Notes: generated by a model from the sequence alone, not told the origin. A stretch of 9,558 nt of DNA from a virus (IMGVR_UViG_2541047429_000025), one strand, 5' to 3'; shown: positions 2,624 to 3,531, counted from the first letter of the stretch. Program-made: numbers and translations.

Positions 2624-2911
2624 TCAGATAGAGAAGGGAAATTGTCGCCGAGAATGTGTCACGCTTACAATCTCAATGCTTGAAGCAGCTACTCTGTACA
2701 GGATTATGTAGTTAGGGTGGGTCACGATCTCTCTCAATCCAGAAACCCGTTCGCTTGGTGGATATAAGTACGGATGCTCAGATAGAGGTAATACCGATGT
2801 TTCAATGCGTATTTTTAGTCTACGTGCTGCCGGTGGGTTCTCCTTGGCGATGTAAGTTATGATCTGGCGCAAATCATCGCGAGCAGACGGTAGCCATAAA
2901 ATGGGTAACAT
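2624..2911 (-). CDS. parE: ParE/RelE-superfamily type II toxin (95 aa)
   Basis: ORF-track ORF MLPILWLPSARDDLRQIITYIAKENPPAARRLKIRIETSVLPLSEHPYLYPPSERVSGLREIVTHPNYIILYRV...; has the ParE pattern (A..DL..I..YIA..NP.AA, GxRE.V, YxI.YRV). Start ATG overlaps the antitoxin stop by 1 nt (TAATG). Confidence 0.85.
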   Translation of the reverse strand: MLPILWLPSARDDLRQIITYIAKENPPAARRLKIRIETSVLPLSEHPYLYPPSERVSGLREIVTHPNYIILYRVAASSIEIVSVTHSRRQFPFSI

Positions 2912-3102
2912 TACTCGCTCTTGTTAGTTACAGCAATTTGAGCAATAAGATTTTCCATTTCAGCCATTACCTCGTCATGTGGAATTGCGGGGCGAGTGTC
3001 TGCAAGGCTTGACGTTACTTTAGTGCGCAACCATTCGTTGTAACTGTTTTCTTGTTCGGTAGTTTCGAATTCTGAAACTATCGGAGAAAGGGCTGTACCC
3101 AT
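2911..3102 (-). CDS. small antitoxin partner of the ParE toxin (63 aa, PaaA2-like)
   Basis: ORF-track ORF MGTALSPIVSEFETTEQENSYNEWLRTKVTSSLADTRPAIPHDEVMAEMENLIAQIAVTNKSE; GGAG 7 nt upstream; sits immediately upstream of and overlapping the toxin gene. Size and three-gene context match the PaaR2-PaaA2-ParE2 system described in E. coli O157 prophages (recalled). Confidence 0.7.
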   Translation of the reverse strand: MGTALSPIVSEFETTEQENSYNEWLRTKVTSSLADTRPAIPHDEVMAEMENLIAQIAVTNKSE

Positions 3103-3129
3103 GGCATAACTCCTCTTCTTGTACTGTGG

Positions 3130-3531
3130 TCACGCCCGGCGGCTTTTTTGTGCCGCCAGCCACCTAGCAATGGTTTCTTCCATTGATTTTTTCTTGTCTT
3201 TGATTTCTTGAAGCATTTTTTCTTGGTCTTCCTCAGGAAACGCACTAAAAGCTTGGAGCAGTTCGCGTTGGCGAGGACCAATTTTCATCGTGTCAGGGGT
3301 GAAAATTTGCTCACACTCTTCAGGAGGCAATAAAAACCAATGCAATGGATGCCCTGAAACCTCAACCAGTTTATCCAAACTTGAGGCTTTAGGTGTAGCC
3401 TTACCGCTGACCCATTGTTGAACAGTTTGTTGTGTCACACCAATTCTACGGGCAAGCTCAGCCTGGCTCCATCCAGTTTCCTGAAGAAGCTTGCTGATTC
3501 TGTACATAGATACTTCTAGGGCGCTCATCAT
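3130..3531 (-). CDS. HTH (XRE/CI-type) prophage repressor, DicA/PaaR-like (133 aa)
   Basis: ORF-track ORF with HTH GWSQAELARRIGVTQQTVQQWVSG; C-terminal PRQRELLQAFSAFPEEDQ resembles the DicA C-terminal region. Divergent from the Cro-like gene. No SD before ATG 3531; alternative in-frame starts at 3528 and 3507. Confidence 0.85.
   Translation of the reverse strand: MMSALEVSMYRISKLLQETGWSQAELARRIGVTQQTVQQWVSGKATPKASSLDKLVEVSGHPLHWFLLPPEECEQIFTPDTMKIGPRQRELLQAFSAFPEEDQEKMLQEIKDKKKSMEETIARWLAAQKSRRA

Follow-up and report, generated by a model that had tools for sequence, protein, structure and literature searches.

The paaR-paaA-parE systems of E. coli O157:H7 were reportedly described by Hallez in 2010. 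The dissected member, paaR2-paaA2-parE2, is carried by prophage CP-933P/Sp12 of O157:H7 (PMC8630535), and it is only in this paralogue that a single operon under PaaR repression has been shown. PaaR2 was demonstrated experimentally in 2021 to be an immunity repressor that ties toxin-antitoxin control to the lysogeny switch (mBio; PMC8630535), and its repression was shown on PR, PRM and PL reporters. The CP-933P YdaT was footprinted on a TTGATT-N6-AATCAA inverted repeat at the end of ydaS (PMC9986795). A homologue of paaR2-paaA2-parE2 sits on CP-933M (Jurenas et al., PMC8630535), whose Sakai counterpart is Sp4 (PMC2884950), and Asadulghani et al. in 2009 placed the Sp4 repressor among those without a peptidase domain (PMC2669165).

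The window analysed here is a stretch of 9,558 nucleotides of viral DNA (IMGVR_UViG_2541047429_000025). Its positions 2386-4321 match prophage Sp4 of E. coli O157:H7 Sakai with zero mismatches, from ECs_1067 to ECs_1071, within a Sakai feature annotated as "prophage Sp4, lambda-like phage". Many E. coli O157:H7 chromosomes shared positions 2400-4400 at 100% identity, 441 records matched at 99% identity or more, and the locus was found in over 430 E. coli genomes with all three ORFs intact. In strain TR01 the integrase is frameshifted. Two places in O157:H7 genomes matched the module. Among the related loci used for comparison, L004 is the true PaaR2-PaaA2-ParE2 copy, since its regulator starts with MQKKE, the N-terminus published from N-terminal sequencing (PMC8630535), and the PDB chains of PaaA2 and ParE2, where aligned, agree with its antitoxin and toxin. 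The three proteins of the window showed 37, 62 and 67% identity with PaaR2, PaaA2 and ParE2, respectively, indicating a paralogous system, and because O157:H7 genomes hold two module places, the window contains the other paralogue, the paaR1-paaA1-parE1 of Hallez et al. 2010. By these identities, the locus is paaR1-paaA1-parE1, a paralogue of the paaR2-paaA2-parE2 of CP-933P. The preliminary description had assigned the operon to the PaaR-PaaA-ParE class of O157 prophages, and both the identity with Sp4 and the similarity check bear this out.

Table 1. Features of the immunity region, in positions of the window.
Feature	Position	Strand	Basis or remark
OL-like operator pair (putative)	2533-2547, 2558-2572		ACAR-N7-CTGT; 25 bp apart
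Intrinsic terminator	2583-2605	-	Hairpin 2605-2590 and U7 at 2589-2583; ends the operon
parE1-type toxin, 95 aa (ECs_1067)	2624-2911	-	Pfam, PDB, identity to ParE2
paaA1-type antitoxin, 63 aa (ECs_1068)	2911-3102	-	Pfam, PDB, identity to PaaA2
paaR1-type regulator, 133 aa (ECs_1069), CI-analogue repressor (supported)	3130-3531	-	ORF, Pfam, PDB, identity to Sakai
Candidate PRM-like -10 TAAAAT	3538-3543	-	Six bases before the regulator ATG at 3531
OR-like operator triplet (putative)	3543-3557, 3568-3582, 3592-3606		ACAR-N7-CTGT; centres 25 and 24 bp apart
Tentative PR-like promoter for ydaS	3582-3611	+	-35 TTGATT 3582-3587, 18-bp spacer, -10 TAGGCT 3606-3611
ydaS-like Cro analogue, 90 aa (ECs_1070)	3640-3912	+	Divergent from paaR1; Pfam YdaS_toxin 8e-10
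YdaT operator (putative) TTGATTCATGAAAATCAA	3889-3906		OM of the PRE-like region; single exact TTGATT-N6-AATCAA match in the window
ydaT-like CII analogue, 141 aa (ECs_1071)	3896-4321	+	Pfam YdaT_toxin 1.2e-9

The six-frame ORF list showed three consecutive minus-strand ORFs filling 2624-3531 exactly (Table 1). A repressor, a 63-aa antitoxin 27 nt further on, a 95-aa toxin overlapping the antitoxin stop and a terminator had been reported from this stretch before, and all of them stand on the minus strand with unchanged positions. The regulator stop codon TGA lies at 3132-3130 (-), and the spacer between regulator and antitoxin (3129-3103) is exactly 27 nt long, including a GAGGAG Shine-Dalgarno sequence at 3115-3110, 7 nt 5' of the antitoxin ATG. 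The antitoxin stop and the toxin start share one base (GAG TAATG TTA, spacing -1 nt). The terminator hairpin begins 18 nt past the parE stop and has a stem of 6 pairs (4 of them G-C) with a loop of 4, and a similar hairpin with a T-run occurs at the equivalent place in the related loci L002, L003 and L006. In 2300-4000, the terminator scan gave 2 sites where chance alone would give 2.2, so what makes the operon terminator credible is where it lies and that related loci conserve it, and not the scan statistics. The other terminator-like site, on the plus strand within paaR (3168-3185), was taken as chance. We infer that paaR1, paaA1 and parE1 are one transcription unit because of the 27-nt and -1-nt spacings, the lone terminator after parE and the lack of a consensus internal minus-strand promoter. 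Gene order, gene sizes and strand logic are the same as in the paaR2 system, and both loci are flanked by DUF1391/ydfA on the left and by ydaS-ydaT on the right. The complete gene order is exonuclease, DUF1482, dicB, DicF (in brackets in our map), ydfC/ydfB/ydfA, parE-paaA-paaR, ydaS-ydaT and the replication genes.

The antitoxin matched PaaA2 in Pfam (PF21217, E=5.6e-19), its sole Pfam match, and the PaaA2 chain 3zbe_A in the PDB (E=1.4e-20). RefSeq labels it as "RelB family antitoxin", a generic name which we did not adopt, as the protein matches the PaaA2 model alone. The toxin matched the Pfam family ParE_toxin (PF05016) over its full length (E=2.9e-17) and, in the PDB, the ParE2 chain 5cw7_B (E=3e-36); in Sakai it is annotated as "plasmid stabilization system protein". 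For all three proteins of the operon, the matches lie well outside what chance would give. A PaaA fold signature in the antitoxin together with a ParE-family toxin is what the paaR2 system has. Classical two-gene parDE systems (RK2, Caulobacter, Vibrio) likewise combine a ParE-fold toxin with a small antitoxin that is partly disordered and encoded directly upstream, but the Pfam search of the present antitoxin gave no HTH, RHH or AbrB match, which means no DNA-binding domain and, specifically, none of the N-terminal ribbon-helix-helix that marks the antitoxin of a classical ParD-ParE system. Transcriptional control would lie instead with another protein, of the HTH type, which is at the same time the prophage repressor. 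The locus thus has the composition of the PaaR-PaaA-ParE class: a ParE toxin, a PaaA antitoxin without DNA-binding domain and a co-oriented upstream gene for a PaaR-type HTH protein. According to a passage of PMC4803016 that relays Hallez 2010, PaaA1 was unable to neutralise ParE2 and PaaA2 was unable to neutralise ParE1, and both O157 systems were specific toxin-antitoxin pairs. The C-terminal 15 residues differ between PaaA1 and PaaA2, which fits this reported absence of cross-neutralisation.

For parE and paaR, dN/dS was not computable because the synonymous sites are saturated, and dN alone is given. For parE, it was 0.09-0.10 against L002 and L003. The dN/dS of paaA against the same two loci was about 0.1, and that of ydaT was also about 0.1. 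Judged from this divergence, the toxin and antitoxin genes are under purifying selection. This bears on the possibility that the operon is inert and survives, with intact-looking ORFs but without function, as a relic of a cryptic prophage in decay. Sp4 was scored as defective for several functions (PMC2669165), and the integrase frameshift of TR01 and the natural parE deletion described below would go with such decay; but in over 430 genomes the three ORFs remain intact with at least 99% identity, non-synonymous changes are few at a divergence that saturates the synonymous sites, and the specific pairing relayed in PMC4803016 concerns both O157 systems. An inert operon is extremely improbable on this evidence.

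The regulator is composed of an N-terminal 434-like HTH and a C-terminal domain of about 47 aa that is also found in PaaR2. Its Pfam matches were HTH_3 (E=2.3e-12) and Phage_CI_repr (7.4e-5), corresponding to the HTH_3/Cro-C1 type. [quoted passage not shown] Over most of its length, the regulator is 28-31% identical to the annotated CI or repressor proteins of Gifsy-1/2, SPN3UB and FSL SP-016, and DicA-type regulators are among its relatives at the same level. No match to Peptidase_S24, the C-terminal domain for RecA-stimulated self-cleavage of CI repressors, was obtained in the Pfam search, which agrees with the 2009 listing of the Sp4 repressor (PMC2669165). We therefore grouped PaaR1 with the short non-cleavable repressors (PaaR2, DicA and Gifsy type) and not with the lambda CI family proper, to which it has no sequence homology beyond the HTH class; unlike lambda CI, it would not undergo RecA-mediated cleavage, having no S24 peptidase domain. 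Some records start the regulator at Met9 (125 aa), which is less likely, as the L003 orthologue has Thr at this position and the upstream residues are conserved.

The identity between PaaR1 and PaaR2 is distributed unevenly. It is about 64% in the C-terminal 47 or so residues (hand count on the alignment) and about 20% in the N-terminal DNA-binding part, and the C-terminal stretch of about 47 aa is conserved across all four immunity types. As judged from these alignments, PaaR regulators are modular proteins, and two partial DNA matches (H52 and H54) are in line with this, as they include the toxin-antitoxin genes but, of paaR, just the 3' part. The C-terminal domain of PaaR1 is unrelated to that of the 434 repressor. 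In the recognition helix, PaaR1 has TQQTVQQW where 434 has TQQSIEQL, keeping the three glutamines; in the 434 repressor these are Gln28, Gln29 and Gln33, which contact the bases of the ACAA half-site. The kept glutamines agree with the operators proposed here, which start with ACAA or ACAG as do the 434 operators (ACAA-N6-TTGT), but with a spacer of 7 bp and not 6.

These operators were recognised as repeats. A 16-nt exact direct repeat joins the paaR-ydaS intergenic region to the region just past the parE terminator. The 15-mer ACAATAAAAAACTGT has four copies with at most one mismatch, namely the last two OR-like sites and both OL-like sites of Table 1, and the looser dyad ACAR-N7-CTGT added only the first OR-like site across the 9.5 kb window. 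The five sites gave six strand-matches of the dyad where 0.53 would be expected, and none of 200 shuffles reached six. As in lambda, two operator clusters about 1 kb apart bracket the operon, and OR has three sites with a centre spacing of 24-25 bp. Operators at OR-like and OL-like positions are also a feature of the paaR2 locus, for which four inverted repeats and three operators per site have been described, compared with three OR and two OL operators here. The published CP-933P operators are palindromes of the GTTTAGTAA type, different from ACAR-N7-CTGT, and this difference suggests that Sp4/CP-933M and CP-933P are heteroimmune.

The consensus promoter scan of 2300-4000 detected no sigma-70 promoter at threshold in the paaR1-ydaS intergenic region or the OL region, and the promoters were proposed from position and comparison. 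Between the two OL-like sites lies a perfect -35 sequence TTGACA at 2558-2553 (-), facing the early-left genes, from which we infer a leftward PL-like promoter with a weak -10 (TAGATT). The regulator ATG has no Shine-Dalgarno sequence upstream, and its spacing from the -10 hexamer recurs in the relatives: TAAAAT-N6-ATG in L003 and L006, TAGAAT-N7-ATG in L002 and GATAAT-N6-ATG in the paaR2 of L004. The paaR2 transcript was mapped experimentally as starting at the ATG, being leaderless (PMC8630535). Because this -10-N6/7-ATG geometry is shared with relatives including the leaderless paaR2, PaaR1 mRNA is likely leaderless and transcribed from a PRM-like promoter, resembling lambda, in which the repressor mRNA is leaderless as well. 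The PRM-like -10 adjoins the operator at 3543-3557 (OR3-like), and the operator at 3568-3582 (OR2-like) has its centre about 44 bp upstream in the context of this promoter. A PR-like promoter for ydaS might be placed, with considerable reserve, by its position relative to TTGATA-17-TATAAA in L003. The -10 hexamer proposed for PR (TAGGCT) is weak, as is that proposed for PL.

YdaS is 23-48% identical to the YdaS proteins of other immunity types, with 23% for that of CP-933P, whereas YdaT is 89% identical to the CP-933P-type YdaT of L004. The putative YdaT operator at the ydaS/ydaT junction spans the ydaT start, and L003, L004 and phage Tritos have the identical operator. A site for a CII-type activator downstream of the cro analogue is another likeness to lambda, but the CII analogue here is the POU-domain protein YdaT.

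The related loci L002, L003 and L004 encode different regulators, and each has its own motif common to its OR and OL. Their left flank is conserved up to ...GGGGCGGGGTGGGT and diverges exactly at the operator start, and on the right the similarity resumes at GGAGTTGATTCATGAAAATCAAGCATGA. Conserved flanks with a divergent core are, in this comparison, the classic mosaic of lambdoid immunity cassettes. Among 50,697 phage records, the DNA search for the PaaR1 immunity type matched the flanks alone, and the protein search found no PaaR1-type immunity, its best match being 54% identical over the HTH half alone. PaaR2-type immunity with an intact module is present in the sequenced phage Evi.

That the regulator doubles as the lambdoid immunity repressor had been proposed in the preliminary description. 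The gene occupies the slot between the early-left genes and a divergent cro analogue, as lambda cI does, and has immunity-specific repeated motifs at OR and OL that flank the operon. Since the five putative operators are confined to OR-like and OL-like positions and the YdaT operator lies at the ydaS/ydaT junction, the immunity role of PaaR1 in Sp4, as a CI analogue, is supported. A regulator dedicated to transcription of the toxin-antitoxin genes, a split antitoxin with a Cro-like neighbour by coincidence, would be the other way to read the same gene order. Type II antitoxins often have HTH_3 domains, HipB and HigA-like chains were among the weak PDB matches, and PaaR2 itself was first described simply as a toxin-antitoxin regulator. 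But a toxin-antitoxin autoregulator needs no operators past the terminator, and here they recur about 1 kb away, around TTGACA. Moreover, locus L006 shares with the window both the operators and the regulator (96% DNA identity for the latter) but lacks parE and the 3' portion of paaA through an internal deletion of about 350 bp; a locus that keeps regulator and operators after loss of the toxin gene indicates a repressor independent of the toxin-antitoxin pair. In phage Tritos, which has the same flanks, the same slot is filled by annotated CI and Cro with no toxin-antitoxin pair, and in the gene order from the dicB side to the replication genes of the window there was no second repressor candidate. 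ECs_1069 is also annotated as "phage repressor protein" in Sakai and treated as the Sp4 repressor by Asadulghani et al. (PMC2669165). We consider a regulator of the toxin-antitoxin pair only to be very unlikely, and continue with PaaR1 as immunity repressor.

It is highly probable that paaR1-paaA1-parE1 is an operon in the Sp4/CP-933M immunity region that works in the following way, in which every step for the CP-933M copy is drawn from sequence and from analogy with the dissected paralogue. PaaR1, as the CI analogue, would be produced from a leaderless PRM-like transcript and autoregulate this promoter. It would bind the three ACAR-N7-CTGT sites between paaR1 and ydaS and the two past the parE terminator, shutting the rightward promoter (ydaS, ydaT and replication genes) and the leftward one (the ydfA...dicF-dicB side). 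The repressor transcript would carry paaA1 and parE1 as cargo, where lambda has rexA-rexB. Their translation would use the GAGGAG ribosome-binding site and coupling at TAATG, and the hairpin before OL would end transcription. Lacking a DNA-binding domain, PaaA1 would bind ParE1 directly and thereby neutralise it. As PaaA1 is presumably sensitive to proteases, loss of the module would free ParE1, an addiction effect that may stabilise the immunity region and the prophage. YdaS, the Cro analogue, would compete for the PaaR1 operators, and YdaT, the CII analogue, would bind TTGATT-N6-AATCAA and drive a leftward PRE-like transcript into the operon.

The arrangement resembles lambda cI-rexA-rexB in having the repressor divergent from the cro analogue and accessory genes on the repressor transcript, but the cargo is a ParE toxin-antitoxin pair and not RexAB. 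The position leaves room for another role of the cargo, mainly as a phage-exclusion or abortive-infection module replacing RexAB instead of a prophage-stabilising addiction module. The rexA-rexB slot on the repressor transcript has been stated for CP-933P (PMC9986795), expression would be expected in the lysogenic state, and phage Evi carries an intact module. However, a PADLOC scan of the five immunity-region proteins left the toxin, the antitoxin, YdaS and YdaT unmatched and gave only generic HTH matches for the regulator, which gives no grounds for placing the locus among the catalogued defence systems. The paralogue has been shown to cause post-segregational killing and to stabilise plasmids, with no detectable ParE2 activity in either state of the switch, a result that also tempers the benefit ascribed to the cargo under addiction. 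A main role in exclusion is therefore unlikely, and paaA1 and parE1 may rather stabilise the prophage by addiction.

The novelty that the preliminary description had implied for the locus does not hold, as the link between toxin-antitoxin control and immunity was shown for PaaR2 in 2021 (PMC8630535) and the Sp4 repressor was catalogued in 2009 (PMC2669165). The system (Hallez 2010), its location on CP-933M (PMC8630535), ECs_1069 as the Sp4 repressor (PMC2669165) and PaaR as a CI analogue that couples toxin-antitoxin expression with the lysis-lysogeny switch (PMC8630535; PMC9986795) are already published, and the window does not differ from the strain background of these descriptions. The locus is a textbook-grade case of a toxin-antitoxin pair inside a prophage immunity switch, with little weight as a discovery. 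One small addition of the present analysis is the operator map of the less-studied CP-933M copy, with three putative OR and two putative OL sites and 434-like recognition residues. The other is that the YdaT/PRE element is identical between heteroimmune paaR modules, which offers a way to ask whether defective prophages in one cell cross-regulate each other.

With more doubt than conviction, we might speculate that Sp4/CP-933M and Sp12/CP-933P are coupled in trans, the YdaT of one prophage activating the repressor-toxin-antitoxin transcription of the other, and that the toxin-antitoxin pair, linked to the conserved C-terminal half of PaaR, penalises replacement of the immunity cassette. Such coupling is conceivable because the two YdaT proteins are so similar, the YdaT operator is identical and both prophages reside in the same O157:H7 cell. 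If it were true, the lysogeny switches and the toxin-antitoxin expression of separate heteroimmune prophages would be linked.

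Some database records begin the regulator at Met9 (125 aa, named 'DicA'; the region concerned is window 3507-3531). Because the orthologue in L003, a related prophage locus with another regulator, has Thr at the Met9 position and the residues upstream are conserved, the sequence comparison favours the 133-aa (or 132-aa) start. The recognition helix of the window regulator resembles that of the phage 434 repressor, in that the three base-contacting glutamines of the 434 protein are retained. The five predicted operator sites also open with ACAA or ACAG as 434 half-sites do, but their central spacer is 7 bp, against 6 in 434. 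In L003, the regulator has Lys at the position equivalent to Gln33, and its operator motif is also different.

In E. coli CAU16175 (L006 3183-3995), a locus with the window's immunity type has lost about 350 bp through a natural deletion. The missing stretch takes in parE as well as the 3' part of paaA, and what is left of these genes carries the annotation of a partial 'antitoxin' pseudogene; the deletion spares the regulator and the OR and OL operators, all of them intact. The sequenced genome of Escherichia phage Evi (LR597642; L007 1730-2601) carries PaaR2, PaaA2 and ParE2, the ParE2 reading frame being intact though without annotation, so the PaaR2-type immunity-plus-TA cassette is not limited to cryptic prophages.

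The other features of the window are as follows.

Further features located in the window
Feature	Position	Strand	Details
DicF antisense sRNA	900-951	-	Rfam RF00039, 76.9 bits, full length
Regulator recognition helix	3412-3432		codons for TQQTVQQW
163-aa ORF	4528-5019	-	flanked by ydaT and the O-like replication gene, in antisense orientation; named 'ECs1072 family phage-associated protein' in RefSeq
O-like replication protein ORF	4951-6153	+	
sok antitoxin RNA	9047-9221	+	Rfam RF01794, 113 bits
hok/mok-like ORF, 70 aa	9159-9371	+	overlapped by sok; annotated hokD in strain TR01

DicF lies in the early-left region, whose transcription the predicted OL-side promoter would drive. Inside the O-like gene there is a QEQEQEQEKEQEQ run (window 5500-5560), which may mark its repeat or origin region, as in lambda O. 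The sok RNA and the hok/mok-like ORF make up a second toxin-antitoxin system (type I) within the same prophage window.

Up to 7746 the window matched Sakai Sp4 at 99.9%, positions 7747-9016 had no match within the fetched Sp4 stretch (L008), and similarity to that stretch returned at 9017, at 95%. The source is a related prophage or strain, not an identical one.

The YdaT operator (TTGATT-N6-AATCAA) and its surroundings were identical in the window (3889-3906), L003 (5267-5284), the PaaR2-type locus L004 (5252-5269) and phage Tritos (L005 3987-4004); it is thus common to heteroimmune prophages and to this phage. Since the operator region is identical and the YdaT proteins are 85-89% identical among the prophage loci compared (L002, L003 and L004), YdaT could act in trans across prophages, for example between co-resident Sp4 and Sp12.
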